Below are positions 1-54,229 of a stretch of DNA of 64,000 nt, piece after piece. Origin of the DNA: Vicugna vicugna (taxonomy: Eukaryota); contig MU057809.1 of assembly GCA_013265495.1 (NCBI GenBank), forward strand, positions 1,169,062-1,233,061, given 5' to 3'. The position numbers and the translations under genes are program-made. Under the pieces are notes generated by a model. It saw only the letters and a program-made list of their open reading frames with translations, did not search any database and was not told where the DNA came from. Position 1 is the stretch's first letter; each line of letters begins with the position of its first letter.

Positions 1-42
1 TTTCAGAATATCATCTCTTCTTTCTCTCTTTTTTTTTTACAG

Positions 43-6437
<6,395 letters not shown>

Positions 6438-8360: not shown

Positions 8361-9566
8361 ATAATTTCCAAGCACTTGTGCTGATCTGTCTTCTGTCGAC
8401 CGGGTTCCCCAGGCCTGGCCCATCACAGAGGACTTTCCTGACCCGTCCCAAGGGTGTGGGGGTGCAGTGTCCCCAGTGTCCTGCTTGGGCATAGGGGTGG
8501 GCGCCCGGCCCCCTGCGCAGTCCTGGTGTCCGGTGTGTCTCCAGAGCAGTCAGGATGGGAGGGGCTTGCCCTCCGGTCGGAGCCTGGAGGCGGGCTCTCC
8601 AGCAAGTCCTTGGTGGGTCAAGAGGCCGGGCCTTCATGGGAGGGGCCCTCTCCTCCCCTGGCCTCGCTCACGTGGCTGAGAGGCCCTGGAGCCCAGCATT
8701 GACCTGGACGCCAAGGGTGAGAACATGGGCGCGACCAGCACAACCCTGCCCGAGATGAGCGAGTGAGCGAGCGTATGTGGCCAGTGACTGCTGCGGGGCC
8801 AGACGAAGCCACGGTGACCCCGTAGTCACTCAACTTCAGACACAACCCCCCTCGTGTGGGTGGGCCTCTGGCGCCTTCCCTCTCGGTGGCTGGAATCGCT
8901 AAGTTGGATTTCTCAGGCCTGAGCTCCGTGGGTCCAGTCTCGTGGTTTACGCCAAAGGCCGCAGCGGTTCTCTGTCCTGGTAGCAGCCCCTGTGTCCCTG
9001 GCGGGAACAGGGCCCTGGGCACCTGGCACGCCGGTTGGCTGCGCGACCTGGCAGGTGCAGCCTGCTTGGGTCACGGCCCAGTGACTTCCTTGGGGACTGC
9101 AGTGGAAAAGTTGAGCGCAGCGTTTAAGCAGTAAACATGCCTGGTGGTTAACGCGAGTCGGGCCCTGGGTGTGGGGCAGGCAGCGTGGGAAAGGGGCCTA
9201 AAACCACATCCTAATCAGAAACCTGTGGGTCGTTGGCAAGGTTGACTTAGAAACGTGCCTTTGAGGAGAGAAGTATTTTGAGGAAATTATTTAAATATTA
9301 GCTGCTAGCTTTCTGCACCAGGCCTGGGGTAGGTCTCTGATGGGCTCACCTACAGACCAGGTGAGGCCTGAGAGCACCCCGGGGTTGCCACAGCGTTAGG
9401 TGAGGGCCCCACCTGAACCACATGGGCCGGCCCTGAGTTGCTGAGACACGGGACTAGCTGGGCTCCTGGGGCCCTGCTGCTGTCACAGGGCTGGGGCGGG
9501 GCTGACTGCAGCCAGGTGTCTCCAGCTGGATAGCAGGGAGCCAGGAGCTCTTGTCCCCGGCCAGCC

Positions 9567-9653
9567 ATGCCCTCCCGCCCTGCTGCCGGCTCCTCGCCGG
9601 CCCGGGGCAGCCCCGCCGTGGGGGAGGTGGAGCCCAAGGACCAGCAGGTCATG
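9567..9653 (+). CDS. KIF19B: KIF19-like exon 1 ([29 protein letters not shown])
   Basis: gccATG context; KDQQVM matches the KIF19 N-terminal KDQQLM; ATG|GTGAGC donor. Missed by the ORF track. Confidence 0.8.
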
Positions 9654-12600
9654 GTGAGCGTCCTCCCCCGAGTGCCTAGACTGTCCCTGGGCCGCCTCCT
9701 CCCTGCCCTGGCCTCCTGACCCACTGCCCCCAGTGCCCGCATGTCATAGGTCAGGCCTCTGCCGTCAGCCCGGGTCCCCATACGGGTCCTGCCCCTGGCC
9801 GCTTAGCCCTCCCTCACAGGGACCTAGCGACCCCCTGCTTCTCACCTCACCCCAACCCCCACCCCATCAAGCTGGGCCTGATCAGGCCTGTGTCCCGGGT
9901 GACGTGAGGCCCGTTAGGCAGTGCGGTGAGCGGGGACCAGGGGCTTGCCGCCAACCTGCAGGCTAGTCACAGAGCCCTCGTGTTCGGGTCCCCGTTTAGG
10001 TGGCAGGGGAGCCACAGCTACCGTTCCTGCCAGGAGGAACCTTCCCCCATTACAGACCGGGCAGCAGAGGCCCAGAAGCACTGCACTGGCTCACTGGGCC
10101 CACGGCTCCTGAGTGGCCAAGGAGGTTGGAGGCCTGGGTCAGTGCCACCCCAGAGGGTGCCCTGCAGAACTGTCTTAGAACCAGGGGGTGAGGCGGGCCG
10201 AGAATGGTGGGCAGCAGGGCTCTGAGCGTGCCCGCAGCCCGCATGAAGGTCAGGTCCCTCGGGGGTGGGTAGGAAGCGGGGCGCAGCGGTAAGACCCCGC
10301 AGCAGCTGTGTGACCCTGGCAAGTTACTTTGGCTCTCTGGGCCTCAGTCGCCCCGGCTCAGACCAGGGAGGGTCACCGCGTTCACAAGGCTCCTCTCAGC
10401 CCCGTCGTGCGGCTGAGCAAGCTCAGGCTCTGCGTGAGGAGGTTCCTGCCCGGCCAGGCTCTAAGGCTTCACCGGGAGTGGGAGGCTCTTAGGAGGTGAG
10501 GGGAGGTTGGGCAGGCGTCTCTGCACTGGAAGGACCGGGGGCTCCCTCGTTGGGGCCTTGGAAGGCAGCCTCGCGGTGTCCTGCCCACAGGTGGCGCTCC
10601 GGATCCGCCCTCTCAATGACTTGGAACTGGAGGATGGGGCCACCGTCATCGCCCACAAGGTGGGTGACCAGGTGAGGCTGCGTCGTGGGGTCAGAGCCCC
10701 CCACCCTCCCACGTGTGCTCACCCACCTCGCTCCCTCCCTTCCAGAATCAGTAAGGTCAGTGCTCAGTGACCGGCGCTCCAGACACTGGCGTGAGGGAAC
10801 CCAGGGCCTGCCGCGTCTCCCCCAGCTCACTTCCTAGTGGGGTGGGGTGGGGTGGGGGTCAAACGGGATAAACGCAGAACACTGGGGAGCTGAGTGCGCA
10901 GAGAACAGAGTGGACAGAGGAGGACACAAACGTCCTCACCCTCCCGGGAGCCGGGAGGGCGGGGGCGGGGGCGGGCAGGAGGAAGGCCGCCCGGATGTGC
11001 GGCTGTGACGGGCCCGGTGACCGCAGCCCCCAGCCCGGGGCGGCACGCTGCCCCGGACCCCTGCTCCTTGGAAGCTGGCTCGGAAGCTGCGCCATCCGTG
11101 CAGCTTAGGCGTGGTGGTGCCCGGGGTCCTCACTGACCGGAACACATGCCAAAGTTGGGGTCCAACAAAACGTGGTTCCCCAACTGGATTCCCCCATTTG
11201 TCCCCGAAAGGCCGCTCTGACCGGGATGCTCCCAGGGTGTGTTTGTTCTTGAGGCAAAGGACCCCGACGGAGGGGAGGCCGGCTGGGGCTTGCCCACGGG
11301 GTGGGGGTGACGCGAGGGGAGAGGAACCGGGGGTGTAAACAGGCGAGACGGGGTTAAACTGCGGGGAACGGAGGCTTACAGGAGGGGCTCTGGCTCGGCT
11401 GTGGAGAGCGTTCCCACAGCCTTGACCTGGAGACAGTGCCAGGCCAACTAGGTCCATGACGTGACTGCCCTGGCAGGCAGGACTGGGGACAGGCTCAGGA
11501 CACGGTGTGGGCCCGGGCTCGGCACAGACAGGGTGACGACAGCCAAGTATCGGCTACGAGTCTGGGGCGAGCAGGGCCGGGGCGGGGGCTGCGGCCCACA
11601 GGCCCCCCGTTGTCACGCCGGGAACTGTGTGCACCACTGATCTAAGCACGCAAGTGCCAGGGAGCAGGTGGTGCCTCTGAAATAGCAGTCGAGGCAAATG
11701 GCCTGCTGGAGTCTGCAGTGGCTCTCAAAATGGTTCCAGTCTCCCCAGATCTTGGCACAGAGCTCCCAGGGGCTCTGGCCTCCCCCGGCTGAGTGGGCAG
11801 GCGGCCCGGTGGCAGGCTCTGGGCCACCCAGTTGGGCCCCTAAGACTCCACAGCTCCCCCAGGTCCCAAGCACCAGGATAAACAGCTCGGCTGGTCTCCG
11901 TTGCCCTGCCCTCCAGCCCCGGCACAGGCTCCTTTGAGCCTCGCGCCCCCAGAGGCCCCGGGACACCCTGCTCTACGAGGACGTGATTCTGTGGGAAAGG
12001 AGAGGCCCCGGCCGGGGGTGCCAGGGGGCTCGGGGGCCCAGCGCAGGGCGGCAGGGCTGGTGGGTGCAGTCCCTCCCCAGGCACCCGGGACCCCTCCTCC
12101 GTTTTCCCCTTTCCTTTGGGCAGCACAGCCCCCGGAGCAGGAGGTCACTGGGTGGGGAGGGGGTGTCCCCTGGGTTGCATGGGGAGAGTGCAGGAGTGAG
12201 GCTGCTGGCTCGGTCCACAAAGCCCCTTCCCCACCTGCAGGGCGTTGTGGCTGGCGTAGCTCTTCACGGGCCCTTGGCGCCCAGGCCCGGCACTTGGTGG
12301 GTGTCTGGGCTGCTGTCCGCGTTGGGCGCTGGTTGGGCGCTGGGATGGGTCGGCTGGAGGCAGAGCCCAGCAGGCCTCGGGGTGGAGGGGGGCCTGCGGC
12401 CCAATCCCCTGCCAACCCTGCCTCTCACTCCCCAGGTGGTGGTGCTGATGGACCCCGGGGAGGACCCCGAGGACCCGCTGCGCACACACCGGTCCCGGGA
12501 GAAGACCTTCATCTTTGACACTGTTTTCGACCAGCAGGCATCCCAGGTGCCCGCCCCTCCCCACCGCCCCATGTCCCCGCGGAGCCAGGCCCGCGTGGGT

Positions 12601-15600
12601 GTCCTCACGTGGGGGGCTTGGCAGCCATGTGGCCTCATCTACGGCGTCTCGCGAATCTCCCTGAGGATCAAGGAGGTTGGCACTTTGGGTCACCCCAGGG
12701 CAGAAGCAGAGGCCCCGTCCAGGGACGCGGGGGGCTGCCAGGTGCCCGGGCTTTATACACATTCTCACACATCCTCCGTGTGTCCGTGTGTCCGTCCACC
12801 CACCCATCCACCCAACAAAGTCCTGTCCTGTCCTGTCCTGTCCTCCACGGGGCTAGAACACACTCCCTGCCCACAGGGGCTCACATCCCAGCAAGACAGA
12901 CAGACAGACGACAGGAGACAAACGGTGATAAGCACCGTCCTGGAGACCAGCCAGGCGAGCGAAGGCCTTCCTGAGGGAGAGCGAGTCAGGCGAGGCCGGA
13001 AGGAGGAAGGAGGCCGCTGCGAGCACACAGTGGGGAGGGTCTGGCGGAGGCTGCCCGGCGCCCGCTCCACAGACGAGGAGTGGGGTCAGGCTGCGCTCCT
13101 CACCTCCGCCCTTTACGAAGGACGGAAGGCCGTCCAGCACGTCCTGACCCTCACATTACAGAGGGCGGCCCGGGCTCAGTGTGGGTGACACACGGGAAGG
13201 TGCTTACTCCTGAGCCCGGCCAAGCAGGACTTGAACCCAGCCTCTCGAGGTGGGACGGCCACGTCTCCGGGGTGGTGACGCCTGCGGGATGTTTGGCCCC
13301 AGGACAGAGCCCAGTGAGGGACGCAGGGGTCCGTGCTCACTCCCGCCCTGCACCCAAATGTCTTTCCCACAGTGCGGGGTGCCCAAGGTACCCCTGCACT
13401 CAGCACAGCCCCCTCAACTGCCAAGAAGCCACGGCTCCCACCTGTCCGCTGGCTTGCAGCGCAGCAGGGCCGAGGCTGCATACAGCCGCTCGCCACCATC
13501 CTTCGTGGCTCTTCGGGTGGATGAGGGTCAGCCGGGCAGGCCCTCCTGTGGTGCTGGGCGTTCACGTGGAGCACCGGGGTTTCCCACAGGCGGCCTCTCC
13601 ATGCAGCTTGGCCTTCCTCTCAGCATGGCGGCCCCAGAGCACAGGCGGGAAGGTGGGCGCTGCCAGGCCTCTCGGGGCCCGGCCCACCGCACCACATCTG
13701 CCACGCTTCACTGGGGGAGCGAGTCACTAGGGCTGGCCTGGACGGCCTTCTGTCTGTCCGCAGGAGGAAGTGTACCGTGCCACCACCCAGCACTTAGTGG
13801 AAGGCGTGATTTCTGGATACAATGCGACGGTGTTTGCCTACGGCCCCTCAGGTACCACCACGGGCAGTGTCCCGAGGAGGGGATGGGGCTGGTGGCAGCG
13901 GAACCCTTTCCAGCAGCACAAAGCACCTACTGTGTGCTGGCCGTGCGCTGGTCCCTCTGCATCCGCTGGCTCCTTTGGTCCTTGCAGGAGCCCCAAAAGG
14001 CAGGTAGAGCACCCCCTGCCCCGTCACAGATGAGAAAACTGAGCCTCCGAGAGGTGAGGGGACTTCCCCAAGGTCACACAGCTGGTAGGAGTGAACCTGG
14101 CACTCAGCCCAAGCCTACACTTTGCTGCCCATGGGAGCCCACAGATTTCTTCTCTGCAGTGACAGGCTGGGATCGCAAACACTGAGACGCTAAGCTGCTC
14201 TCCTAAGAACTAGAATCGCAGAGGGCCAGCGCTGGGTGAGCCCTGCGGCCCTCCCCCTGCAGGTGTGGAAACGGAGGCCCTGGGAAGCCTGGCTCAAAGC
14301 CACAGCTTGTTTATTTCATTCATTCATTCATTCAACAAACATTAGGGAGCATGTACTATGCGCTGGGCTCTAGCAAAGGAAAAGGGCCAGCTGGTCCTTG
14401 CCTCTAGGGGCGAACGGGTACAGGGTGGTGAGGCACTGCTTAGAAAGTTTAGCACGTACGTTAATTCTATTACAGAAACAATACAAACACCTTAAAGCAA
14501 ATTTGGAGCGGGGAATCCGGCCTCCCTCCGCTGACTGCGCCTTTGCTTTACGTCCTCCAGGCTCCCTGCCTGCCTAGGTGCCCTCCACACAGCGGCCATC
14601 AGGCGGCTCAGACAGGGTGGTTTTCTTTTTCCTTGTTTCCAAAATGGAAAACGAGAGTGCCAGAGAGCAGGGGCAGTTTGCTCAGTAAAGGCCGCGGGCG
14701 TGGCCAGGCTCGGGGTGGGGCCCAAGTCCAGCTCAGGAGCCCCGCCTGGATGGCGTCCTGCTCCCCTCGCAGGTGCCGGCAAGACCCACACCATGCTGGG
14801 CACGGACGCGGAGCCTGGCATCTACCTGCAGACCCTCACCCACCTCTTCCGGGCCATCGAGGAGACCCGAGACAGCGCGGACTGCAGCGTGTCCATGTCT
14901 TACCTCGAGGTGAGCCCCCCCGCCCGCCTCGGCTGCAGAGCCCCCACCTGTTACCCCAGGTGCCCCCGGCCTGTGGGAAGCCTCCGCCTTCCCGGCGTCC
15001 GCATCCCCTCTGGAGGTGCCGAGCCCCAGTGACAGGCAGGTCCCTGCACTGCTGCCTTTGCACCAAAGCTCCCGCTCCCAGCGTTTCTGTGTCATGCAGA
15101 TTTATAACGAAGCCATCCGGGATCTCCTGAACCCGTCCTCGGGGTTTCTGGACCTGAGGGAAGATGCTAGGGGCAGCATCCAGATTGCAGGCATCACGGA
15201 GGTCTCCACCTCCAACGCCCAGGAGGTGAGGCCCACGGGGGGACACTGGCAGCCACGCTGGCAGGCACCAGTCCCCACAAGGTCCCTCACGGTCAGGTTC
15301 ACAGAGCAGAGTCGGACACACAGCTCCTCCTGGGCTCAGGGAGCAGCCCACGCCCGCCCACCCCAGCCACCCTTGTCCTGCCCTCCACGCTGCGCTCAGG
15401 GCAGGCATCACCAGTGAACCACGCAGCCTTCCCTCTGTGTCCACGTGCAGGTGTGGAATCCACCTTCCTGCAGCACCCCAGGTGGGCCCCGCCGGTCAGG
15501 GTCAGCCTCACCTCTAAAAGCCGCACTGATCCTGAGTGCTGCTCCCACAGCCCTGCCCTCCAGCCTCTCCCGGTGCTGCCCTCCCACTTGCCCAGAACCC

Positions 15601-18600
15601 TTCAGCTGCTCCCTATGGCCCCCGACCCCTGGGTGACCGTGTTTTCCAGCCGTGACGGCCTCGACCCGAGACCCTGCCCTGATGGCCCGTCGCGGGCCCC
15701 GGGTTGGAGAGGAGGGCCTGTTCTGTAGGAACAACGGGCATGTCAGTCTCCCTCCACGCATGCTTTGTGGTCCTCCCCCGCTGGCACGCAGTGGGTGCCC
15801 AGCAGAGGCTCACTGGCTTGATTTCCACCGCTGGTTGCACACAAAAGGCTTTCAGACCACCCGCTAACTCCAGCAGACCCCTACAACTGCCTGGAGTTCA
15901 GTATTGAAAGGGCTCTCTGGGGAAGAGACGGGTAATCCACTGGTGATGTCTGCCACGGGCAGAGGTGGGGAAGGGCTGCTACAAGTGCGACTCCCGCTGG
16001 TTCAGTTGGCGGATTCATTAATCACTTCCTGCCGCAAACCAGAAATTGCTTCCACCAGTTGAGGCTCTGCCATCTGCAGCCGGGGGCCGGGGAAGAGGCA
16101 CCCCAAGGGGGCTCAGGGGTGCACCCTCCTTCTCTTGTTCTGGAGAGAGCGTGTAGCATGCAGGGGCCCTGACGGCCTCCCGCCTCTGCCTCGGTCCTCA
16201 GATCATGCAGCTTCTCACCAAAGGCAACCGGCAGCGCACGCAGGAGCCCACGGCCGCCAACCAGACGTCGTCCCGCTCCCACGCCGTGCTGCAGGTCACC
16301 GTGCGCCAGCGCAGCCGCGCCACTGACTTGGCGGGGGCAGTGCGCCTGGGGCGGCTCTTCATGGTGGACCTGGCGGGCTCGGAGCGGGCATCCCAGGTTC
16401 CTGGCCTCTTCGTCACAGTTCCTCCCCTTGTGTCCGTCTGCTCGCTAGTCCATGCGCAGGACACTGTCCCTCTTCGTTCAGCAGCTTCTCCAGCACCGAG
16501 ACCGGCGCCTGGCCCAGGAGAGGCGCCTGCTAACCGCGCGCTGGGGACCGGGCCGCGGAGCCAGGATTCAGGGAGGGCACCCCGTGTGGCAGGCTCCCGG
16601 GGCACCAGACACACAGAGACGAGCTGCACCCAGACCCGCCGCTGGGAGCCCGGAGCCTCTCAGGGCGGGTGGGAGGCAGATGCGTGAGCAGATAGTTACA
16701 GCACAGGAAGGCCGTGCTTTGAGATTTGGGGTCACACAGAGGCTGTGGCACCCAGGATAGTGGGGTGGTTGTGGGGCCTCAGAGCTGAGCCCGAGGAAAA
16801 GCCTGTCAGGTGGAGGGAGCCACACATGGTGGGGGGTGTTGGTCGGGAGGCCGCGCCCCGCCTGCCTGCCCCCTCGTCCCTGCTCCAGCCGTTGTGGCAC
16901 CTGTCGCTGGGAGTGAGGGTTGTGCTCACCATTGCCTGGGAGGCTGAGCGGTCCTCAGGGACACCACCCAGCCCAGCAGCAGGAACAGGGAGGGTGCTGG
17001 ATGGAGGCCGTGCCAGAACAATAATGCTACCAGCAAGGGACGCCTCTCCCATCCCTCCAAGGCACCAGCACTTAGCACTCATAAGCCCCGTAACCCCAAG
17101 TCCGTGAGGTGGGCGGCCTCACGCCTGTTTTTCCAATGCTGGGCTGAGGCTCTGGTGGTGGCGGTGTGGCCTCGCCGTGACAACGCCGTGCACAACGGGA
17201 GGGGTCCGGCCCAGAGCTCTACATTTCACGGCTGATACCCCTCCTGCAGTTTGCACAGTATGCTCTGTGTCCTCAGGGTGTGTTGGTCATTGCATCTCTT
17301 CACTCATTCACTCACCTTCCCTGTACCTGGCCCTGCCCTTGGGCCGCTGAAATGAGCAGACTGGCCAGCTAGCCTGCAGTCCGATGGGTCTGAAAGTAAC
17401 ATACTAATACAGTATGAGGCTGGAGGTGCAGTAGTCCAACACATCAGAGATGACCGCCCCGAGAAGATAGCGAGTTACTCACAGCTCCCGGACCGGGGTG
17501 GNNNNNNNNNNNNNNNNNNNNNNNNNNNNNNNNNNNNNNNNNNNNNNNNNNNNNNNNNNNNNNNNNNNNNNNNNNNNNNNNNNGGGGAACTCGTGGGCCA
17601 GAGCCTTTATTGTGGCTTCTGTGGGAAGGCAGGGTGAGCAGGCTTGGGGTCAGCTAGTTTGGGTCATTCCACTGGGCCCTGGGGCACAGGGGCTGTCCCT
17701 GCTGACGAGGGCAGGGGGACAGTGGCCCAGAGTGTGGGGGCCCCTGGAGGAGGGGGTGGGGCAGGCTCTGGGTTGGCTGGTTTGCATTTGAAGCCTGTGC
17801 TCATGGGTGAGTGGCTTGTCTCTAGGACCCGGCCATCCTGGGAGGGACAGCAGGGCCCCCCGATGACAAAGCCTCAGAATAGAGAAAATAAGAGACATGG
17901 TTGATACACAGACAGATGGGGGTGCACACAGCTTCACGTTCACGAAGCTGAGTGTGACAGAGGCCTGGGCTCTGCCTGTGCCGGCCAGACAGTGCTGTGT
18001 CCTCCGGGGCAGGTGGGGCCCGTCTCCCCTGGACTTGGTGCTGACAGAGGCCACCAGACTTAGGAGGTTGAGGCTTTGGGTCCTTGCTCTCCTTCTGCTC
18101 CAACTTGCTGTGTGCCTTTGGGCAGGCCACTGTCCCTCTCTGGGCCTTAGTTTTTAAGCTGTATACTCAGGTGGCCTAGTGCGCTGTCTTTAGGATCTGC
18201 TTGGCTCTCATGGTCTGTTGTTTCTTCAGAGAAAATTGCTCATGAAAGAGTTTGTTCCAGGGCACGAGGTCTCCAAGAAAGCCCCTTGAATCTGTGGCAC
18301 AGATACGTGATACCTGAGAAGCTGCTGTGGCCTGGGTCATGCCAGCAGCCCCAGGCCTGCCCCACACCAGCTCCCACTCAGGGACACGGCAGCTCACGTC
18401 TACCGCTCGCTTCTGTGGGCCCTGCTCTGAGCTGGTCTCTTACATGTGTTGCCCATTAAATCCTGGCTGTGACCCGGGGCGACTGCCCCTTTTGTAAATA
18501 AGGAGACTGAGACAGGTTGGGAGATCCGTCCAGGATAAGTCATTTAAGCTATTCTCAAACTGCGCCCCAAACTGGCTCTAAACCCGTGCCCTTAAAATGT

Positions 18601-39600: not shown

Positions 39601-42600
39601 TGGTGTTTCACCCTCAGCGATGGTTACAAGTCATCAGAAGTGACGCCATCTAGGAAGCTGGGAAAGCAGGACTCTCTCCTCCCTCCGCCATCCCTGCGCA
39701 TCCTGCTGACCCCTCCCATCCGCGAGGTTGGTGTGTGCGGGGCTCGCGGCACCCGGCTCTGGGGAGCTCAGGGGCGGGCACGGGAGCAGCTTCCGGAAGG
39801 AGGCCTCTGCTTAAGCAGCTGTCGCAATGGCGGCGACCGTGTCCTGAGCCCGCTGGTGTCGCCATGTTAGTGTCCCGGGGTGGGGCGGGACAAGGCGCCA
39901 CAGACTAGCTGAAACCACAGGCGTTCGTTGTCTCCGGTTCTGGAGGCCAAGCCCACCATCAGCTGTCCCTCCCGGGGCTCTGAAGGCGGGTCCCTCCTGC
40001 CTGGTCCAGGCCTGGCGGCCCTGGGCGCCCCTTGGCCACGTCCTCCATCTCTGCCTCTGTCCTCACAGACCTCCTCTCTGTGTGGCTCTGGGCCCCTCCT
40101 CTTGTAGGACGCCCACCCGTCACTGGACAGAGGGCCCACCCTCAATCTAGGGTGTTCTGATCCCGAGACCCTCAGCTTAATTACATCTGCAAAGACCCTG
40201 TCTCCAAAGGGCACACTCTGAGGTCCCAGGTGGACATGGATTTGGGGGACACCATTCACCCCACTGCAAACGCTCCCCCCAGCCATGCATGAGGCAGGGG
40301 TGGTCATTACCCTCGATTTATAAGCAACACATGAGACTCAGAAGTCAGGTGGCTGCTCACCCTGCTGCTGGTTCCTGGTAGCTCGGCTGGGCCTTGCTGT
40401 GCTCATCTGTGGGTGGGGGGTAACCCCACCCACCTCACAGGATTAAATGAGTGAATGAGTTAAAGAGCACAGCTTCCCCTCCTCCAGAGTGTGGGCGCTG
40501 TGGGGGCTCAGAATAGTCCAATTGCTGAGAGGTTGGGCTCAGGCATCAGTCTGGTTAGCCCTGGGATCAAGTCCCCACTTTGTCCCTTGCTAGCTGTGTG
40601 ACTTTGGGCAAGTTGCTTCATGTCTCTGAGCCCCTATTTCTCCACCTGTAAAATGACGAATCCAGGAGCCTCAGAACGGTGCTAAACTCAAAGAAACATG
40701 GGGTAACAACCAAAAGGAAAAGTCCAATTCCTTCCTCTGGGAGACCCTCGAAGAGGCCCGTCCACCGTCCCCTGAGAGGCTCAGTGACCCTCTGCCCAGC
40801 CCCTATGCCCCACCCCGGAGTGCCCCTCCACGCAGAGTGAACTGCATTCCTGCCTCCCCTCCCCACTTCCTCCCACCGCTTCCACTTCCTCGTGTAAGCA
40901 GCCTGGCCCTCTCCCAGGTGGCACGAAGGCTCCCCTCCCCTTGTGGGAGGGGGCGGGAGGTGGGGAGCCGAATGGCAGGTGCGAGGCGCCCTTGGGCAGA
41001 CAGGCGAGCTGGGAGCGCGGGAGGAGGCCTAGGACACCCACAGGCTGGCCGCCTTGGCCCTTGCTTGTGAGCTGCTGTCGCGAAGCCGGAGCCCTCGTCA
41101 GTACTAGTGATGCTGTAAGTGCGCGGCCCCGACGCTTCTGGCCTCCACCGCCGGGGCGTCTGTGCTGAGGATGCCCCCTGCCAGGGAGCCAGCTGCCCTT
41201 GCTGGGGTCCTGGGGAGTTAGGATCTCGTGGGAGGAGCCCCCAGGAGTGACTCCGGGAGTGCTGTGTAAACATCCCGTACCCCTCGGCCCTGGGGTGTGG
41301 ACCCTGATGCCCCAGCGCTGCTCTGCCTCACAGGGCGTCCCCTGTCAGGAACTGGCTCCATCACACGGCTTCCCCGGCCCTCGTCCCACCCCCAACAGTC
41401 TTGCCCCCAAATAAACTGCTGTCCTGGGTCTGCTTCTGGGGGCCCCACTTGGGGCCACAGGGATGGCCCGGTGACCTCTGACCGCTGCTCTGCCCTTTCC
41501 CGCAGAAGTCGAGCTCCCTGAACGTGAGCAGTTTGGTCTCCAAGCTGTGCTCCCCGGTGAGCCTGGAGCCAGGCACCCCCACCCCGAGGCCGGAGGCCCA
41601 GGCCAGGCTGAGCGCCCAGGCCCTCGAGGAGATGGCCGCAAGCACCAAGAGCATCGCTCTCATCGCGGCCACGCGGCGCTCCTGGGTGCAGGACCGCGAG
41701 GGCGGCAGCGGCCGCTCCTCCCTCCACCCTCCAGAGGTAGCCCTCGACTCCAGGGACCCCAAGCCCTGTGTCACCCCGGAGGCCAGCCCAACACACAAGA
41801 GGTGGCCCCACGCCAGCCCTGGCAGGGGCCGCTCCATGGAGAGGAAGGCCAGGAGGATGTGGTCGCCCTCCCGCACCTGGAGCGGGCAGCCGGTGGGTGG
41901 ACGCTGGCCGGGTGCTCCAGTCCCAGGGGTCCAGCCGGAGAAGCAGAGGGACTGACCTGGACAAAGTCGTGGTGGGGGTGGGTGTGGGAGGGCCCGAGAC
42001 GTGAGGAAGAGCGGAGAGCCAGGCCCCACCCTCACCTCCTCTGGGACCATCTCCCTCCTGCCCAACCTGAAGCCACGTGTCCACACCAGTGCGTGGGCAT
42101 CACCCCCGGGAGATACAGTTTCATGACCTGAGTTTCTCCCCTTAACGTGATTCCATAAATTCTCACGTGCCTACGTGGTGTTTGTGCTTTAATGTAAGGA
42201 AAGTCTGATGACTAGACTCTAAAACATAAACAACAAGGGCGTGAGAGGCGAGCTGTTAAGCACAGACCACCGCGAGGCTTGCCCCTCCGCCCCGCGTCTG
42301 GCGCCGGGTCCTCCATCAATACCTGCCGAGGGCCGACCGGCCACACGCGGTTCCTTCGTGGCCCCCTGAGGCTGTCTGTTCCCTGTTAAAGGGCCACGAA
42401 GGTGCCTTGCATTTTTGACTGTCACGCATGATGCCTACGCATCCCTATGGGAATAGTAGTGTTCATTTTGACTGACTTTCTTGGGATATTGGACAGTGTC
42501 GACATGAGCAAAAGTCTCAGGGAAACAGGATTGAGCAAAAGTCTCAGGGAAACAGGATTAAGCAAAAGCAGAGAGCACGTGCAGTTAAGGTGACCACAAT

Positions 42601-45600
42601 GGTGTGGGACCATGTCTGCGTGGGGGAGGCGGAGCCCCGGGTTCACACGGTGACAGTCTTCCCCGAGGGGGCTGCCTTGTCGCCGTCCGCCGGTCAGACA
42701 GACCCAGGGAGACGAGACAGCAGGCTGCCCCCGGGCGCCGTCTGCCAGAGCCCCTGTCTGCCTCTGCCGGCCAGCCCCCGGGCCGCGCTGGGCACACAGT
42801 GGGCGCTGCTGATTCAAGCAGAAATGGCCCTGGTCACCACTCAGTGGAACCAAAGGTGGGACAGTGGCAGGGAGCAGAAGGTGGGTGTACTAATCAGGGT
42901 TTTCGCAAGAAACAGAACCAAAAGAAAATGTGTGTGTGTCTACACGCACGCCAGCCAGCAAGCTGGACATCCGTGGGAGCCGAAGTTTCAGTTCAAGTCC
43001 AAAGGCAGGAAAAAGCCGATGTCCCAGCTGAAGGCAGCCAGGCAGGGAGGGTCTCTCTCACTCACAGGAGAGTCAGCCTTTTTTGTTCTATTTGAGCCGT
43101 CAGCTGATTGGGTGAGGTCCACCTCATTGGGGAGAGCAATCTGCTTCACCCAGTCTATGGATTTAAAGGTTAACCATCACAGGGGGTTTAGGTGAGAACT
43201 AAACCATGGGGGCAGGTGATTGAGAAGGGAAAAGGAGGGGGCAAAAAGCCAGGAGACCATCATTCGTTCATTCATTCACTGCTCTTTGGGGGTCGAAGGT
43301 GAATGTCAGCAGCAGTTCTGACCGTCGTGTTCACCGAGGTACCCACGTGCCTGCAGGGGTCTGGCACGTGTAGGTGTTTAACAATCAGCACGTGGCTTCA
43401 GCTCAGAGTGACCCTGACTTTTCATTCCGCCCCCATTTGCTCCCCACGCCCTGTGACTTTTCCCCTGCAGGTGACGGAGAAACTTCAGCCGCCCTCGGCC
43501 GAGCACATGGCTGAGAGCCAGCTGCCCTCCGCACTCCTTCCGCCGTCCAAGTCCTCGGGAAAGAGCATTTTCCCTGCGGTGCCTGCAGCCTCGAAGACAA
43601 AACCCAGCCTCAGTGTCCATGCAGGTACAGGGTCGAAAAAGGAAAAGAGAACGGTGAGATGTTTCTTCCGTATCTTAAGACTCCGCCCGTTCTCCCACGT
43701 GTAAATCTTTGGAAGGCGAGACAGTCTGGCCTGCTATCAGCTGCCTGTTCCTTGGTGTGCGTGCGTTTCAGGTTCCTTGGGCAGTGAGCCAGCCAAAGCC
43801 ACTGGCTGTGTGAACAGACATACTTGCAGGAGTGCTTCGTTTGGCCTCTGGCCTGCCTGACATATCAGTAGAGTTTAAGGAAACGATTGAAATTGGGCAC
43901 ATACGGCTGGCTGCCCATACTCAGTCCTGACCCTTGGCCCCTACGACTCCTTACAGTGCAGGTTTGAATCCAGCCTCCTGTGGTGGTGGCTGTTACAAAG
44001 CAACATACACTCATTGTGAAGACTTTGGAATACAGACAAAATTATAAGTAGCAAACCGCTCGTCCGCCCGCCACCCCATCCCTGTGAGACAGCGTCCTTG
44101 CAGGGGCACTGTGCCATGAACATCTGCCCCCTACCAGGGATGTGAGGGTGGTGTCCAGGTTACCAGAGTTGTGGCAGCAGGCCCGTGGATGTCCGGGCTC
44201 CTCGGAGGGGGCACACCAGCTGTTCCTGACCTGCAGCCAGAGGGGTGAGGCGCAGAGACCGAGCGTTCAGGGAGGAGCCCGCGGGCGATGAGACAGCACC
44301 CTGACTTGTCAACAGCCTGGACTCTTCCCGGTTTCATTTAACTTTCCCAGTGATTTGGTTTTTTTATATTCGCAAAAGTATCAGCCCAATATAGACTGAA
44401 AACCAGACAGGCAAGCTCTTGGGCGGTCGAGAGCCTTGGCCTCTATCGCTGGTTATATGATAGCAGCTCACAGGTACTGAGCACCTACTATGTGCTGGGC
44501 CTTCCCTCAGGGAACGACTGTTATCCCCATGATACAGATGAGTAAACTGAGGCACAGAGGAGTTAAGGAATTTACCCAAGTGGAAGAGTCGGGGTTCAAT
44601 GTCAGATAGGCTGGTCCCTGGGTAGGCTCCTAACCCTGCTTCCAGACGTCTTTTCCTTATTTTGTTTTATTAAGAGTATTCTTAGTGGGCCAAAGGGCGG
44701 GTGCATTTTTAGGGTGCTGGATACCACAGTTCAAAGACAGCGGAGGCAGTGTACACACTCTCTGTCTTGCTGGCAGATGTGCGCCTTGGCACAACCGGAT
44801 TCATATACACGTCTTCAAGGGCTTTTCAGAAGTTCAGTCTTGACAAAATTCAGATTTATTTGTGATTTCTCAACTCAGCTTCTGCAATTGCCAGAAACCA
44901 CACAGGCCTGCAGTAGCACCTAAGAAACTGAAAACCACCGAAAGTGTTCTTTATTCTTACAGAATTTTTTGCTTCCCAAAGTGTTTAATTTTGTGTGTGT
45001 GTTTAGATGGTCATAGAACAATAAAACGTCACAGAGAAGGGTCCCAGTGCAGGCGGCTGGGCCAGCTGTCCACCCCTCCCTCCCCGCAGGTTCTCCACCT
45101 GGAGGAGGTGGGGACGCAGCACCTGCCTGGGGGAGGGGAGCCACAGGAAGTAACAGGTATGGTGCTGAGAGGGGACTGGATTTCACTGCTAAGCCAGGAG
45201 GCTGAGTATCCCGGGGCCACCCCTCCCTCACTCCAGTCGCTGGGGATGGTGTTTATATCTCCTCTGGAGATAAGCCCCTTGGAATGAGTTTGTATAGATG
45301 ATTTTAAAAAGGAGTTTGCTTTCCCAGCGTTTTGTGCTGAAATTCCTGACATACAGAAGCAGAGTCAGCGTCAGAGCCTCCGGGGCAGCCGGCGTCGCCT
45401 GCAGTACTTTGGAGATTTTGTTTTGAGGTCTTTGCACATTCTCATTGTTGGTGTGTTATCTGCTTTCCTGGAGGTATTTCAAGAAAACCCTGGATCATGT
45501 CGCTTCACCCATAAGTATTTCACGAGCTCTTGCTAATGGACAAGAGTGTTTGCTGCACTTCACAGCTAGAGAACTTCAGAGCAATTCCCCAGTATCATCT

Positions 45601-48002
45601 GGTGCCCAGTCCACACCCAGGAGAGATCAGCCTTTGTCAGTGAGAACCAGTACTGGCCCTCTCAGGTGGCCGGAGAGGGCCCACGTCCCGTCTTTGCTGG
45701 GACCAGGCTGAGCCCGCTGCAGGGAGGGGCCGAGCCCTCCTTCCTGGGACCCCCTTCTCTCAACTGTGTCTGCAGAGGCCCCGTTGGGGGCAGAGGTTCT
45801 CAGCTCTACAACTATGTGTTCCTGTGATGGAAAAGTCGATGATCCTTCAAGATCCGTAGCCCAAGTGGTTCAGACGGGTAAACTGAGGCCTGGAGAGGGG
45901 AAGTGAGATCTCTGGGATCACAATGTGCATTGGTGGCACAGCCGGGATTGGGGCCTCCAGGTCCCTCTCTCTGAGCCTGCTCCCTCTTTTTGGAGAAAGA
46001 ACACATTTAGACTTGACAGGTGGGCAGTGAGGGCCTGCAGGTCACGGAGGTGCACCGGGTACCCCCCTTCTCTGGCGGGGCCGTGCAGGACAGTGTGAAA
46101 ACAGGCCTTCCCAGCACACACTCATTGTTTGCAGAGGCCGGGGCTCCCCCGGCTGAGAGGTCCAGGGGCTCCCATTGTTCACAGCGAGGGCCCTGGTGGG
46201 TCTTGTGTCCAGGGGTGCAGTGCTGAGCCACAGCCCACACGTCCGAGAGGAGGGGGAGGAGCCCACACTTACAGGCCAGCAGATGCGGGGGGTGGGGTGC
46301 CGGTGCACCGCCTCACTCATCACCCACAACAGCCCGCCCAAACGGGTGCCGATTTCACAGAGTGATCAATGCAGAGCGGAGGGGAGGTCGGGGCTCGCAG
46401 GGCAGCCCAGCCCGGCTCCTGGTCTCCCTGGGTGTTCCCGCACCTTCTCTATCTGTCCCATCCTGGGCCAAGGGCAGGACAGTCTCCCCTTATGTCCACC
46501 CAGCTCGTTCGGGGAGGGGAAACCATTCTAAAACCCTCCTGAAAAGTGGTTCAGTTCCTCTACATGAGGAATTCCTTCCCCCTGATTAAGAGCAACTTAT
46601 TAACATCCAGAACAGCTTAGAACTTTCCTTCCTATGGCAGAGATCACAGACCAAACCAGCCCCGAGTGTGGGAGAGCCCGGCTGACCAGCAGCACATTTT
46701 CAGATAATGTGAAAAGCCAGATTGCACACAAAATTCCAAAGTCCGGCTTCTTTTACAAGAGGAAGGTCTGGAGACAGACAGCTCCCTCCTCCCCACCTTC
46801 AGATCCTGACTCAGCACTGCTGTCCCCGCCAGGCGCCATTTCTAACTGGGCCCACAGCGCGGGTCCCCAGTGAGAGGACTGCAGCTGGAGCTCACGTTTT
46901 TGTTCACTGTCTTCCCGCCAAGTCGGGGGCTCCGTGCGCGCAGGGATGTTTGTGGGTCTCAGCCACCGCCATGTGCCCAATAATTACAGCAGACGCTCCG
47001 TAAACAGCAGTCAAAGGGGGAGGGGACAGCTCAGCAGAAGGGCACGTGCTTAGCATGCACGAGGTCCCGGGTTCAATCCCCAGTGTCTCCATTAAGAAGA
47101 AATAAAAATTAATTTTAAGAAATGTTTTAAAAAACTAATCACCTCCCTCCACCAAAAAATAAAAATAAAAATAAATAAATAGGAGTTGAGTGGGTGAATG
47201 AGTGAATGAGTGGGGGTGACCTTGTGCAGGTTGGGGGGAGGCAGGCCCCGCCCCACCCCTGGAAGAGACCCGTTTCTCTCCCCCAAACCCCCTCTTTGCT
47301 TCTCTTCCTGTTTGATGACGATGTCGGGTTAAGCTGCTCTATCAGCCCAGGAAGTGCTCTCACCGCCACGGCCATGTCCTGCGGCTCAGAGCAAGGAGGG
47401 AGCAGACGGAAGGAGGCAAGAGCTTGGCTGAGGCGAAGGGAGAGGAACCAAAGCCAGAGGAGGGGCCAGTTCTAGAAAGGTCAGACTCAGACAGGGGCTC
47501 TCGTGAAAACAGCCACCACTGGCTGGGGGCGCACAGGCCCTGCGACTTCCGGAGAGAGCAGCAGGGTGGGTCCTGATCTGGCACGTCACCCAGTCCTCAC
47601 CCGTTTACCCCCAGGACTCCTTGGAGGACCCCTGGAAATCTCAGCGTTCCTTCCCTCCTGTTCACTGTCCAGATGAGGCCGCGCCCCGCAGGCCGGAGGT
47701 CAGCCGCTCCTTCCCCAGCGCCACCCGGGAGAGCAGCAGCGAGGCTCCCCTCCTGCCCCGGGGCATCCGAGGTGAGCCCGCCTCCCCGCCCATACCCCCT
47801 GTGCATCCTCCCGGTCAGGTCAGGTCGGGGACAGAGCCGGGCCCCCGGACCTGCCCAGGCGTCCCCGGCCCCGCACCCACTGGGGGAAGGACAGCGTAGG
47901 ACTCGGCCTCGGCCCTGACCCTCACCGCTCGTCCCCACGCTGACGAGGCTGTGTCCCTCAGACGAGACCGCTCGCAGCGACCCTCCCCAGAGCGGGCCGT
48001 GA
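9567..48002 (+). CDS. KIF19B: Kinesin-8 family KIF19-like motor protein (probable KIF19B), 22-exon model of ~1066 aa
   Basis: join(9567-9653,10591-10671,12436-12546,13764-13851,14773-14909,15100-15225,16202-16396,19357-19509,20108-20230,21972-22122,28947-29124,30213-30396,33319-33589,35460-35581,37233-37357,39618-39726,41506-41892,43471-43653,45090-45156,46641-46765,47615-47771,47962-48002) = 3201 nt, all GT-AG and phase-compatible. P-loop GPSGAGKT, switch I SSRSH, switch II DLAGSE, plus a KIF19-type stalk. The B-paralog assignment rests on recalled synteny with EIF3B. Confidence 0.85.
10591..10671 (+). CDS. KIF19B: KIF19-like exon 2 ([27 protein letters not shown])
   Basis: Kinesin VxxRxRP motif; cacAG / CAG|GTGAGG. 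Confidence 0.92.
12436..12546 (+). CDS. KIF19B: KIF19-like exon 3, loop 2 ([37 protein letters not shown])
   Basis: FxFDxVF motif; cccAG / CAG|GTGCCC. Confidence 0.92.
13764..13851 (+). CDS. KIF19B: KIF19-like exon 4 ([29 protein letters not shown])
   Basis: [10 protein letters not shown] kinesin motif; cgcAG / G|GTACCA. Confidence 0.93.
14025..14120. mobile_element. MIR SINE remnant
   Basis: cagatgagaaaactgag...cccaaggtcacacagctggtagg MIR core. Confidence 0.7.
14773..14909 (+). CDS. KIF19B: KIF19-like exon 5 ([46 protein letters not shown])
   Basis: P-loop GKT; cgcAG / GAG|GTGAGC. Confidence 0.93.
15100..15225 (+). CDS. KIF19B: KIF19-like exon 6 ([42 protein letters not shown])
   Basis: IYNExIRDLL motif; tgcAG / GAG|GTGAGG. 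Confidence 0.93.
16202..16396 (+). CDS. KIF19B: KIF19-like exon 7 ([32 protein letters not shown]...[14 protein letters not shown])
   Basis: Switch I and switch II motifs; ctcAG / CAG|GTTCCT. Confidence 0.93.
17427..17908. mobile_element. LTR-type element copy 1 (TG...CA), contains the assembly gap
   Basis: Similar along its length to 32734-33183; ends catggttgataca. Confidence 0.6.
17502..17583. other. Assembly gap (82 N)
   Basis: Run of N. Confidence 1.
19357..19509 (+). CDS. KIF19B: KIF19-like exon 8 ([51 protein letters not shown])
   Basis: INxSLLALG and RDSKLTRLL motifs; cgcAG / AAG|GTATGA. Confidence 0.94.
20108..20230 (+). CDS. KIF19B: KIF19-like exon 9 ([41 protein letters not shown])
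   Basis: LGGNSRT and RAKNI at the motor end; gagcAG / AGG|GTGAGG. Confidence 0.94.
20270..20540. mobile_element. MLT1 (ERVL-MaLR) LTR fragment
   Basis: gatctcatctcaagatccctaattacatctgcaaagaccc typical MLT1 text, also seen at ~40170. Confidence 0.55.
21520..21860 (-). mobile_element. Old L1M 3'-end fragment
   Basis: ttaaccattttaaatgtgacagttcagtggcatt...gtggaatcacag...tctggtttatttc. Confidence 0.65.
21972..22122 (+). CDS. KIF19B: KIF19-like exon 10, neck coil ([50 protein letters not shown])
   Basis: VSYHIAQYT matches the KIF19 neck; cccAG / CAG|GTACGG (alternative donor after 22095). Confidence 0.88.
22401..22518 (+). mobile_element. tRNA-derived SINE (Vic-1-like)
   Basis: ggggaagggtacagctcagtggtagagc A-box head, degenerate B box, ctccattaaaataaat tail. 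Confidence 0.75.
22900..23122 (+). mobile_element. 5'-truncated L1 3' end with poly(A)
   Basis: aaggtcctactgt..agcacagggaactacattcaa...ataactgaatcac...caactatacttcaattaaaaaaa. Confidence 0.75.
23130..23253 (+). mobile_element. tRNA-derived SINE (Vic-1-like)
   Basis: ggggagggtgttgctcaagtggtagag...ggttcaatcccc (B box)...aataaacctaattatctccc, A tail, aacctgt target-site duplication. Confidence 0.85.
25900..26042. repeat. Imperfect GC-rich local repeat (3x GCACTGCCTTC core)
   Basis: gggccgcgggcactgccttc-type unit at ~25910, ~25980 and ~26022. Confidence 0.65.
26190..27345 (-). mobile_element. Degraded L1 ORF2 fragment (region leading into the reverse transcriptase)
   Basis: Minus-strand translation [60 protein letters not shown]...[10 protein letters not shown]. 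Confidence 0.9.
28645..28832. repeat. (CCAT)n-type simple repeat
   Basis: catccatccatc runs. Confidence 0.9.
28947..29124 (+). CDS. KIF19B: KIF19-like exon 11 (...[45 protein letters not shown])
   Basis: LLELEN and [11 protein letters not shown] match the KIF19 stalk; cccAG / GA|GTGAGC. Confidence 0.9.
30213..30396 (+). CDS. KIF19B: KIF19-like exon 12 (DWERERTHH...[26 protein letters not shown])
   Basis: Phase 2 in, phase 0 out; EPxEVxxARE resembles KIF19; tgcAG / AAG|GTAGGG. Confidence 0.85.
31890..32390. mobile_element. MLT2 (ERVL) LTR remnant with internal (GT)n
   Basis: ggattctgcctcaagactg...cctgcctgagtttcca...tctcctgttgcttctgtctctccggagccctgact. Confidence 0.55.
32734..33183. mobile_element. 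LTR-type element copy 2 (TG...CA)
   Basis: Similar to 17427-17908; ends catggttaatgca. Confidence 0.6.
33319..33589 (+). CDS. KIF19B: KIF19-like exon 13 ([51 protein letters not shown]...[14 protein letters not shown])
   Basis: [20 protein letters not shown] is a KIF19 signature; gccAG / G|GTGAGC. Confidence 0.92.
34102..34365. repeat. (CAC/CAT)n trinucleotide low-complexity repeat
   Basis: catcaccaccatcacc... about 260 bp. Confidence 0.95.
34605..35105 (-). mobile_element. Old L1M 3'-end fragment
   Basis: aattgaggtaaaattt...tgtggccttttgtgtctggcttctt...tgagtatacacctaggagtgg. Confidence 0.7.
35114..35201 (-). mobile_element. tRNA-derived SINE (Vic-1-like), short
   Basis: tggaggtgctgggagtataacccaggacctcacgcacgctaagcacacgctctacctctgagct. 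Confidence 0.75.
35460..35581 (+). CDS. KIF19B: KIF19-like exon 14 ([41 protein letters not shown])
   Basis: Phase 1/0; AVP...Y..EL pattern like KIF19; tgcAG / CAG|GTGAGT. Confidence 0.85.
36520..36990 (-). mobile_element. Old L1M 3'-end fragment
   Basis: ggaatcacagtgtctgtcc...ttccacctttgggctgttgtgaataaggctgct...gggattgctgggtcctatgg. Confidence 0.7.
37233..37357 (+). CDS. KIF19B: KIF19-like exon 15 ([41 protein letters not shown])
   Basis: DSS...LPP pattern like KIF19; cccAG / AG|GTAAGG. Confidence 0.78.
38040..38205. repeat. Degenerate (GT/GC/AT)n purine-pyrimidine repeat
   Basis: gtgtgcacgtgtgtacaagtgtgtgcacatg... Confidence 0.8.
39618..39726 (+). CDS. KIF19B: KIF19-like exon 16 ([37 protein letters not shown])
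   Basis: Phase 2 in, phase 0 out, needed to bridge exons 15 and 17; ccctcAG / GAG|GTTGGT. Confidence 0.65.
39865..40270. mobile_element. MLT1 (ERVL-MaLR) LTR
   Basis: gttctggaggccaagccc...cttaattacatctgcaaagaccct...tggatttgggggacaccattca. Confidence 0.7.
41506..41892 (+). CDS. KIF19B: KIF19-like exon 17 (KSSSLNVSS...[21 protein letters not shown]...[20 protein letters not shown])
   Basis: [13 protein letters not shown] resembles the KIF19 tail motif TKCIWVKAARRRS; cccgcAG / CCG|GTGGGT. Confidence 0.7.
42505..42568. repeat. 27-bp tandem duplication (2 perfect copies plus a partial)
   Basis: TGAGCAAAAGTCTCAGGGAAACAGGAT x2, then TAAGCAAAAG. Confidence 0.9.
42885..43180. mobile_element. MLT2-like LTR fragment
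   Basis: aggcaggaaaaagccgatgtcccagctgaaggcag...gattgggtgaggtccacc...aatctgcttcacccagtcta. Confidence 0.6.
43471..43653 (+). CDS. KIF19B: KIF19-like exon 18 ([19 protein letters not shown]...[14 protein letters not shown])
   Basis: Strong ttttcccctgcAG acceptor; ACG|GTGAGA donor in phase 0 (alternative phase-1 donor after 43624). Confidence 0.55.
44470..44635. mobile_element. MIR SINE remnant
   Basis: tactgagcacctactatgtgc...cagatgagtaaactgaggcacagaggagttaagg. Confidence 0.7.
45090..45156 (+). CDS. Candidate KIF19-like exon 19 ([22 protein letters not shown])
   Basis: cctccctccccgcAG / CAG|GTATGG, phase 0/1; supported only by splice signals and phase. Confidence 0.45.
46641..46765 (+). CDS. 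Candidate KIF19-like exon 20 ([42 protein letters not shown])
   Basis: tttccttcctatggcAG / AAG|GTCTGG, phase 1/0. Confidence 0.45.
47016..47180 (+). mobile_element. tRNA-derived SINE (Vic-1-like)
   Basis: ggggaggggacagctcag...gcttagcatgcacgaggtcccgggttcaatcccc...ctaatcacctccc, A-rich tail. Confidence 0.8.
47615..47771 (+). CDS. Candidate KIF19-like exon 21 ([52 protein letters not shown])
   Basis: tttacccccAG / GAG|GTGAGC, phase 0/1. Confidence 0.45.
47962..48002 (+). CDS. Candidate terminal coding exon 22 ([13 protein letters not shown])
   Basis: gtgtccctcAG acceptor, phase 1, TGA at 48000-48002; no canonical AATAAA nearby. Confidence 0.35.
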
Positions 48003-53531: not shown

Positions 53532-54229
53532 TATTAATCAGCTGACCGACCTGTCACCTCCCACCCGATGGCAGAACTGGAATGTGAGCAGCATCTTTGC
53601 ATCTCCCTGAGCCCTCCTGCCCTTGCCAAGCTGGGATGCCTGCCGGCAAGGGGCAGCCTCTGTCCAGGGAAATGGAGGGTGTGGAAAGAGGTCGCTGCTT
53701 TGAGAGGTTAGCTGGGAAGGGGCTCCCTGCAGGGGTAAGGGTATGGGTGTGGTTTTTGCTTTTAAAACAGGACAGGCCTGACGGTGGTTCATGCTAAAGC
53801 AGGCACCCAGCGGAAAGGAGGGTTTGGTAAACGGTCAGTTTGTTGTCTCCTTTCTAGAGTAGAGGCCCAGCTGTGACTGAATGGAGACGTGGCTTTCCAT
53901 CGGAAGGAACCACGTAAAACTTCATTGACTGAAGGAGTTGTGCAGACAGGCAGTGGAGACGGTTGCACAAAACGTGAATGTACTTAATGCCCCTGAATGG
54001 TACACTTAAAAATGGTTAAGATGTCAAATTTTATGCTATGTGTATTTGACCACCACTTAAAAGAACCACTGACAGTAAGAACAACGGCGCATCCGGCATC
54101 TTAGCGCTTTACACGCACCCTCTCATGTGGGTCTCACCAGCTCCCTGCAGGGCGAAGTCACGACCCCACTGATGGACTCAGAGACAGACACCTCAGAGAG
54201 GTTCAGTCACTTGCCCAAGGCCACACAGC

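Follow-up and report, generated by a model that had tools for sequence, protein, structure and literature searches.

An intact KIF19B gene between EIF3B and CHST12 in the vicuna genome

The EIF3B-KIF19B-CHST12 locus and its gene model

Within the window, a stretch of 64,000 nucleotides of vicuna DNA, we found a multi-exon gene of the KIF19 type on the plus strand, starting with an ATG at 9567 and free of internal stops (Table 1). Phylogenetic placement, described below, assigns it to KIF19B. The gene order is EIF3B, KIF19B, CHST12, and the position between these two neighbours, proposed in an earlier note on this DNA, is borne out by EIF3B exons on the left and a CHST12 open reading frame on the right. 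The EIF3B exons are 88-100% identical to the EIF3B part of a squirrel gene model (P0054; seven of eight matches), and their identity is also backed by a Pfam eIF2A match. The CHST12 reading frame (L012:7736-8992) lies ~7.7 kb beyond the window end and is identical to 'carbohydrate sulfotransferase 12 [Vicugna pacos]'; a CpG island within the window is likely to be its promoter. CHST12 and KIF19 also carry consecutive locus tags in sheep and argali.

The boundary between EIF3B and KIF19B is compact. Two AATAAA signals, at 7529 and 8355 and thus ~830 bp apart, suggest alternative 3' ends for EIF3B, and the KIF19B ATG lies just 1.2 kb past the distal signal (8355-9567). There is no CpG island at the KIF19B start (CpG o/e 0.46), and camel RefSeq models use other first exons (8636-8716 and 8886-9080). 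Fused EIF3B-KIF19 gene models are found in squirrel and wild camel, so EIF3B read-through into KIF19B may occur. Scanning upstream of KIF19B for RFX X-boxes revealed no excess (one palindromic match; null P=0.23); the KIF19A control region yielded none in the same scan, which is therefore uninformative. Among repeats, copies of a tRNA-derived SINE lie at 23132-23206, 47026-47110 and 63115-63175, the first of which ARAGORN called as tRNA-Ala(AGC), most likely falsely. Introns also hold tandem repeats, namely (CCA/CAT)n, (ATCC)n and a 27-bp unit in 2.4 copies (34102-34365, 28644-28831 and 42505-42568).

The supported KIF19B model comprises 20 exons (9567-49764; 2982 nt, 993 aa) with 19 GT-AG introns and one terminal stop; exons 1-16 (9567-39726) by themselves join through GT-AG introns into 747 stop-free codons. 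All 38 splice dinucleotides are intact, insertions and deletions relative to orthologs are whole codons only, and we found no stop, frameshift or broken splice site in the 20 exons. An 82-base run of N in intron 7 (17502-17583) touches no exon, and none is missing across the gap. Exon 13, which is 97-98% identical to Camelus and 77-91% identical to other amniotes, served as a query that returned 194 proteins, of which the best 120 were listed and nearly all are named 'kinesin-like protein KIF19'. Ten orthologs were additionally aligned against the window with our own implementation of spliced alignment.

An intact KIF19-type gene beginning at 9567 had been claimed before, and that part stands; its proposed 3' end at 48002 gives way to an actual end at 49764. 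The earlier reconstruction joined 22 exons into 3201 nt, the last segments of which are unmatched by orthologs. Among the best 120 of 194 homologues, none matches 47615-47672 or 47962-48002, the latter spanning only 13 codons and so providing a weak test, and none of the ten aligned orthologs uses 47962-48002. Seven of these ten stop exactly at 49761, with TAA next. The earlier note listed no exons; keeping exons 1-18 in place along with the 47615 and 47962 segments, none of the two-exon bridges passing our own splice filter between 43.7 and 47.6 kb gave a total of 3201 nt. Another 42 two-exon bridges of other lengths were open in this GC-rich stretch, so open joins there easily arise by chance. 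Candidate exons at 45090-45156 and 42775-42880 were rejected, each matched by none of the best 120 of 194 homologues. Exon 19, as corrected, is diverged in the vicuna and carries a three-residue deletion.

Upstream of exon 19 lies a candidate alternative last exon that has no non-camelid match among the best 120 of 194 homologues. It is followed by a tRNA-derived SINE whose A-rich tail places four AATAAA motifs ~230-300 bp downstream of the candidate exon. These might provide a poly(A) site within the intron, yielding a form that would lack the conserved basic C-terminus.

Table 1 Features of the KIF19B locus in the window. Counts over 120 refer to the best 120 of 194 homologues retrieved with exon 13; counts over 10 refer to orthologs in spliced alignment.
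Feature	Position	Strand	Support
EIF3B 3' exons (left neighbour)	40..6437	+	Exon identity, Pfam eIF2A
Exon 1, ATG at 9567	9567..9653	+	5/10 orthologs start here; 8/10 use the 9653 donor
Exon 2, start of motor domain	10591..10671	+	Stop-free join, spliced alignment
Exon 3, loop L2 (acidic-hydrophobic-basic; KIF19A L55, R56, H58, R59, R61 kept)	12436..12546	+	
Exon 4, first half of P-loop	13764..13851	+	
Exon 5, second half of P-loop	14773..14909	+	
Exon 6	15100..15225	+	
Exon 7, switch I and switch II	16202..16396	+	
Exon 8, helix alpha4, loop L12 with two basic residues, Asn equivalent to KIF19A N297	19357..19509	+	
Exon 9, helix alpha6 (Tyr versus mouse KIF19A G341)	20108..20230	+	
Exon 10, neck linker and neck helix	21972..22122	+	Helix in mouse ortholog model
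Exon 11, stalk helix	28947..29124	+	Helix in mouse ortholog model
Exon 12, stalk	30213..30396	+	
Exon 13, stalk; first search query	33319..33589	+	Amniote matches
Exon 14, end of stalk	35460..35581	+	10/10 orthologs
Exon 15, start of disordered tail	37233..37357	+	9/10 orthologs with same ends
Exon 16	39618..39726	+	10/10 orthologs
Exon 17, tail helix common to KIF19A	41506..41892	+	93/120 homologues in frame
Exon 18	43471..43624	+	79/120 homologues
Candidate alternative last exon, 77 codons, open in vicuna too	46641..46873	+	Used by 4/7 Camelus models
tRNA-derived SINE, A-rich tail with four AATAAA (47101-47175)	47026..47190	+	Just downstream of alternative exon
Exon 19, acceptor at 47673 (not 47615)	47673..47771	+	37/120 homologues; 6/10 orthologs exact
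Exon 20, stop TAA after the conserved basic C-terminus; overlooked in the earlier note	49664..49764	+	45/120 homologues in one frame; 7/10 orthologs end here
CpG island (probable CHST12 promoter)	54200..55400 (about)	.	Position relative to CHST12

Predicted protein, expression and likely activity

The predicted protein is laid out as a motor domain (residues 30-368), a neck, a helical stalk (~430-670), a mostly disordered tail and a conserved basic end. The window encodes an intact P-loop, switch I and switch II, in agreement with the earlier reading of the catalytic motifs. When ortholog proteins were scanned, Pfam PF00225 scored above cut-off for camel and dog (E 6e-105 and 3e-109), and the best PDB match of the Bactrian camel ortholog was KIF19 (E 3e-161), followed by other kinesin-8s (E 1e-84 to 1e-106). 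The structure model is that of the mouse ortholog and was used for the stalk helices and disordered tail only: mean pLDDT is low in the motor (55) and ~77-93 in most stalk blocks, and the tail is disordered save for a helix at 781-807.

We compared the motor with the residues on which KIF19A depends for depolymerising microtubules. Loop L2 of KIF19A has an acidic-hydrophobic-basic order, and mutation has shown the roles of L2, L12 and N297; the L55A substitution lowers the depolymerisation rate from 10.9 to 2.5 nm/s, and KIF18A has Pro where KIF19 has N297 (all as described in PMC5045296). The vicuna model keeps L55, R56, H58, R59, R61, K290, the second basic residue of L12 and N297, the L12 basics and Asn being K306, R310 and N315 in its own numbering. 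Asn occupies the 297 position in 75 of 77 KIF19B rows of the alignment and all 30 KIF19A rows. At the position of KIF19A G341, the vicuna and 71 of 77 KIF19B rows have Tyr; Gly is found in only 24 of 30 KIF19A rows and thus marks part of the KIF19A clade, not the KIF19 subfamily.

The C-terminus encoded by exon 20 is basic, with at least four K/R in the last 16 residues in all 31 KIF19B rows (of 78) that have an exon-20-type end. Tails of kinesin-8s set localisation and can bind importin-alpha or microtubules, according to PMC6359247. Single gene models carry changes in catalytic motifs, namely switch I Arg to Cys in squirrel (P0052), switch II Gly to Ser in white rhino (P0043) and P-loop Gly to Val in serow (P0117); these are possibly further losses or sequencing errors. 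Within the vicuna KIF19B model there is no canonical RVxF match, and four SxLP strings are present. Exon 18 encodes the region (residues ~915-925) of a K-x-K-F/Y motif kept by paddlefish, caecilian, reptiles, platypus and marsupials, the aromatic residue of which has been lost in placentals; we take the motif to resemble a PP1-docking RVxF site.

Indirect evidence of transcription comes from orthologs in relatives. Mouse RefSeq NP_001365608.1 spans all 19 junctions, and three rodent-type Logan proteins from contigs of 1.1-1.8 kb span six, including that of exons 19-20. A camel-type Logan protein on a 2039-nt contig has exons 2-7 spliced together across 6175 bp of genome; the two ends of the contig lie in introns 1 and 7, so that it reflects partly spliced RNA, not finished mRNA. 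Searching sequencing runs retrieved part of exon 17 in 18 rows from nine studies, which we did not count as expression; 12 of the 14 RNA-like rows were assigned to RNA by guess, with shares of 0.15-0.36. In mouse retina, Kif19b mRNA is reported to fall together with other cilia genes upon Wdr34 knockout (PMC12810420), and Kif19b appears in a differentially expressed gene list in PMC12800911.

Judged from its sequence, the gene likely encodes a functional plus-end depolymerising kinesin-8 that is probably ciliary. The components of this reading differ in strength. We are highly confident that it is an intact, selected ortholog of KIF19B, and analogy with KIF19A gives good grounds to expect a depolymerising motor; for a role at the ciliary tip, suggested by the same analogy, we put the chances at about even, which makes it the likeliest single reading. 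If it works as KIF19A does, KIF19B would dimerise through its neck and stalk, walk slowly to microtubule plus ends and be held on the microtubule by the basic loops L2 and L12. The hydrophobic tip of L2, with a loose switch II region of the N297 type, would then stabilise curved tubulin such that the microtubule shortens. More speculatively, KIF19B might act at the tips of only some kinds of cilia, where KIF19A would be the less dispensable of the two partners, and its basic C-terminus might provide a second site for microtubule binding or import. The sister gene KIF19A is described as ciliary (PMC10787775). Kif19a-null mice are reported to have long cilia despite having Kif19b (PMC9083010), so KIF19B is no general backup for KIF19A.

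This missing redundancy in the cells of Kif19a-null mice also suits a different, rather unlikely scenario, in which KIF19B is a functional kinesin-8 that does not regulate ciliary length. It would instead act on cytoplasmic or spindle microtubules or modulate KIF19A, for example as a heterodimer, with the C-terminus as a nuclear import signal. Its neck is 71% identical to that of KIF19A, which could suit such a partnership; KIF19A ends differently from the basic terminus shared by all 31 exon-20-type KIF19B rows, and kinesin-8 tails are, as noted above, capable of binding importin-alpha as well as microtubules. Ectopic human Kif19 has been placed on peripheral microtubules, under a section heading that also names the nucleus (bioRxiv 10.1101/2020.09.04.282657). 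What tips us towards a ciliary depolymerase is that the motor keeps the KIF19-specific loops, that the sole tissue statement we found, the retinal one, groups Kif19b with cilia genes, and that the characterised sister is ciliary.

Constraint in the vicuna lineage and apparent decay elsewhere

Selection was gauged at the protein level, in place of dN/dS, as the share of amino-acid changes that fall at conserved sites. Our reference comprised 587 sites, 348 (59%) of which are at least 95% conserved in 61 mammals, camelids and apes excluded. On the camelid stem, 4 of 48 changes lie at conserved sites versus the neutral expectation of 59% (P=2e-13), or 3 of 39 away from exon junctions (P=2e-10). 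On the vicuna branch the share is 1 of 9, with 5.3 expected under neutrality (P=0.004), or 1 of 7 away from junctions (P=0.03); this test is among eight done on branches once the data had been seen, and it draws on just 7-9 substitutions. These shares show purifying selection on the camelid stem and in the vicuna lineage. A pairwise version of the measure is biased low for densely sampled clades, as close kin remain in the reference set, and we used only the camelid and ape branch tests, for which those taxa had been left out of the reference.

The nine substitutions on the vicuna branch are mostly conservative, and the core motor differs at 3 of 228 sites, within the range of other mammals. 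Vicuna and dog KIF19B are 91% identical over the motor, 83% over the stalk and 69% over the tail. Compared with KIF19A, KIF19B is under clearly weaker constraint and evolves several-fold faster, as seen in motor identity to dog (91% vs 99%) and in branch length along the camelid stem (0.12 vs 0.017).

In Old World camels, the nearest relatives, KIF19B appears free of constraint. In Camelus, 13 of 23 changes fall at conserved sites, where neutrality predicts 13.6, and 9 of 14 do so away from junctions; the share differs from that of the vicuna branch (Fisher P=0.044) and from that of the camelid stem (2e-5). Bactrian and dromedary KIF19B differ at 17 of 584 sites, and KIF19A of dromedary and wild camel at 2 of 585. 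Many of the Camelus changes (P0002-P0006, P0479-P0481) replace Arg with Cys, Gln, His or Trp, and they reach the L2 basic cluster, with R56C in six of eight Bactrian-type records and R61Q in dromedary. None of the seven Camelus models ends in the conserved C-terminus, four of them using the alternative last exon. In one Camelus model (P0003) the reading frame shifts within the exon-19 region; at the level of a protein model, this suggests a frameshifting deletion in camels.

Apes show related signs. The L55 position of KIF19A is occupied by Ala in all four ape records (P0046, P0050, P0066, P0068), a natural copy of the L55A mutant, in which KIF19A depolymerises about fourfold more slowly. Of the L12 basic residues, K290 is lost in siamang and the second in orangutans. 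In orangutans 17 of 29 changes lie at conserved sites, the 29 including six at one mis-modelled junction; away from junctions the share is 6 of 12, a pattern that looks neutral. The siamang departs from neutrality (3 of 17, and 3 of 15 away from junctions) and still looks constrained, an argument against a single loss common to apes. In the best 120 of 353 matches retrieved with the siamang protein, the primates are lemurs, loris, siamang and orangutans only, with no B-type protein from human, chimpanzee, gorilla or monkeys; whale B-type proteins are likewise absent from these hits and from the best 120 of 194 exon-13 matches. Such absences among predicted proteins do not establish loss. Gene-model errors can mimic relaxation, since on a whole-lineage measure golden mole (0.20), oryx (0.23) and Molossus (0.30) score at least as high as camels (0.16-0.20).

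From these predicted proteins, KIF19B seems to be in decay in camels and some apes and to remain constrained in the vicuna lineage. We tentatively raise a broader scenario, which predicted proteins and absence among best-scoring matches would make possible at most: a second ciliary-tip depolymerase for one class of cilia, independently lost or relaxed in the human and African ape line, monkeys, orangutans, Old World camels and whales, the L55A change having first weakened the motor in apes. If this were true, llamas and alpacas set against camels would amount to a recent natural knockout, and a loss pattern matched to a ciliary trait could name the function of one of the last unstudied vertebrate kinesins. 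We considered whether the losses are tied to loss of the vomeronasal organ and dropped the idea because manatee and several bats, presumably lacking that organ, have B-type models.

A bleaker possibility for the vicuna copy is that selection was relaxed recently in all camelids and that the frame has so far stayed intact by chance. With assumed rates, the probability of finding no lesion on the terminal branch under neutrality is 0.13-0.24, so the intactness of the frame does not in itself argue against a recent loss of constraint; the neutral share of Camelus changes at conserved sites, the Camelus hits on the L2 basic cluster, the diverged exon 19 of the vicuna with its three-residue deletion and the start without a CpG island all fit such a dying gene. 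We nevertheless hold it to be improbable, as eight of the nine changes on the vicuna branch avoid conserved sites, a share that sets this branch apart from Camelus, and every functional residue and splice dinucleotide is intact.

Orthology and comparison with known kinesins

To place the gene, we built a maximum-likelihood tree (LG+G4; 38 rows, 902 columns, with 13 further rows left out and no KIF18 row). The vicuna model groups in a KIF19B clade that runs from paddlefish to mouse (support 100/99) and includes mouse NP_001365608.1, dog, horse, manatee, siamang, lemur, koala, platypus, turtle, lizard, amphibians and paddlefish. A separate KIF19A clade (100/100) holds human KIF19, hamster Kif19a, lungfish and a second locus of the vicuna genome, and camel, dog, lemur, koala, Emydura and Elgaria are represented in both clades. 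With paddlefish inside the KIF19B clade and amphioxus outside both, the duplication is older than the split of ray-finned and lobe-finned fishes; it may have come from vertebrate genome duplication.

The vicuna's own KIF19A lies on another contig, C6509 (G000:C6509:3360000-3384000, L009-L011), on the minus strand, with 20 exons and no internal stop, and it differs from camel KIF19A at 4 of 585 compared sites. The two genes have 15 of 19 introns in common in place and phase. Identity of KIF19B to KIF19A falls from 76-78% in the motor through the 71% of the neck to 43% in the stalk and 28% in the tail. The separate clade and the separate KIF19A locus support the earlier proposal of a second KIF19 paralog distinct from KIF19A. 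That the gene might be orthologous to KIF19A, or a copy of KIF19A that arose recently within camelids, as the database name 'kinesin-like protein KIF19' borne by both genes and the similar motors could suggest, is refuted by the tree and virtually without a chance, given an intact KIF19A that groups with camel KIF19A elsewhere in the genome and an overall identity of 51% to KIF19A vs 75-80% to the B-type proteins of mouse, horse and dog.

B-type models are found in placentals, marsupials, platypus, turtles, lizards, gharial, amphibians and paddlefish, and the mouse ortholog has a curated RefSeq entry. Retention of KIF19B, as far as these predicted proteins tell, is the norm and loss the exception. 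The earlier idea that this lineage keeps a functional second motor therefore survives as regards an intact and constrained gene; the lineage is not unusual in having it, and the use in motile cilia or sperm flagella suggested there would be a possibility.

KIF19B is already known by name and predicted in many genomes, and an intact camelid copy is expected. It is listed in kinesin tables (PMC12439720, PMC9083010) and given as 'not annotated' in a human cancer survey (PMC4559828), and the symbol KIF19BP has appeared in print (PMC12388004). Our literature search, whose scope left subscription journals and most supplements outside, found no functional or evolutionary study of KIF19B, a name that occurs once each in seven of the papers covered; neither the main text of PMC2864566 nor one supplement of PMC10195156 mentions kif19 or kinesin. 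What the present analysis adds is a revised 3' end that encodes a conserved basic C-terminus, a motor with every residue that KIF19A needs for microtubule shortening, and signs that the gene has decayed repeatedly, in camels and in apes, beside constrained sister lineages. If the decay holds at the DNA level, these species offer natural contrasts for asking which cilia need KIF19B and why humans manage without it.

Set against known systems, KIF19B stands between distant and very close relatives. KIF18A/KIF18B, Kip3 and Plasmodium kinesin-8B are fellow kinesin-8s, the next best solved matches, and were not among the rows of our tree. Human KIF19BP (ENSG00000230914), which we take to lie between EIF3B and CHST12, is the presumed ortholog and bears a pseudogene symbol; the pseudogene status given in the earlier note is supported to the extent that this symbol exists and that the best 120 of 353 siamang hits include no human B-type protein. 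KIF19A is the best solved match (mouse motor, PDB 5GSY/5GSZ; human KIF19). It shares with KIF19B the L2 and L12 basic clusters, L55, N297, the common introns and one tail helix, and KIF19B differs in clade and locus, in an L12 longer by two residues, in Ser for the P-loop Thr, in Tyr for G341 and in its basic C-terminus; KIF19A is the characterised member of the pair, and its paralog is the one that evolves several-fold faster. Closest of all is mouse NP_001365608.1, presumably the product of the Kif19b gene (alias, we believe, Gm4869), although the record itself says 'Kinesin-like protein KIF19'. It falls in the same clade, is 75% identical, aligns over residues 1-993, spans all 19 junctions and shares the basic C-terminus, and it departs from the vicuna protein by species-level divergence, the three-residue deletion in camelid exon 19 and perhaps the alternative last exon.
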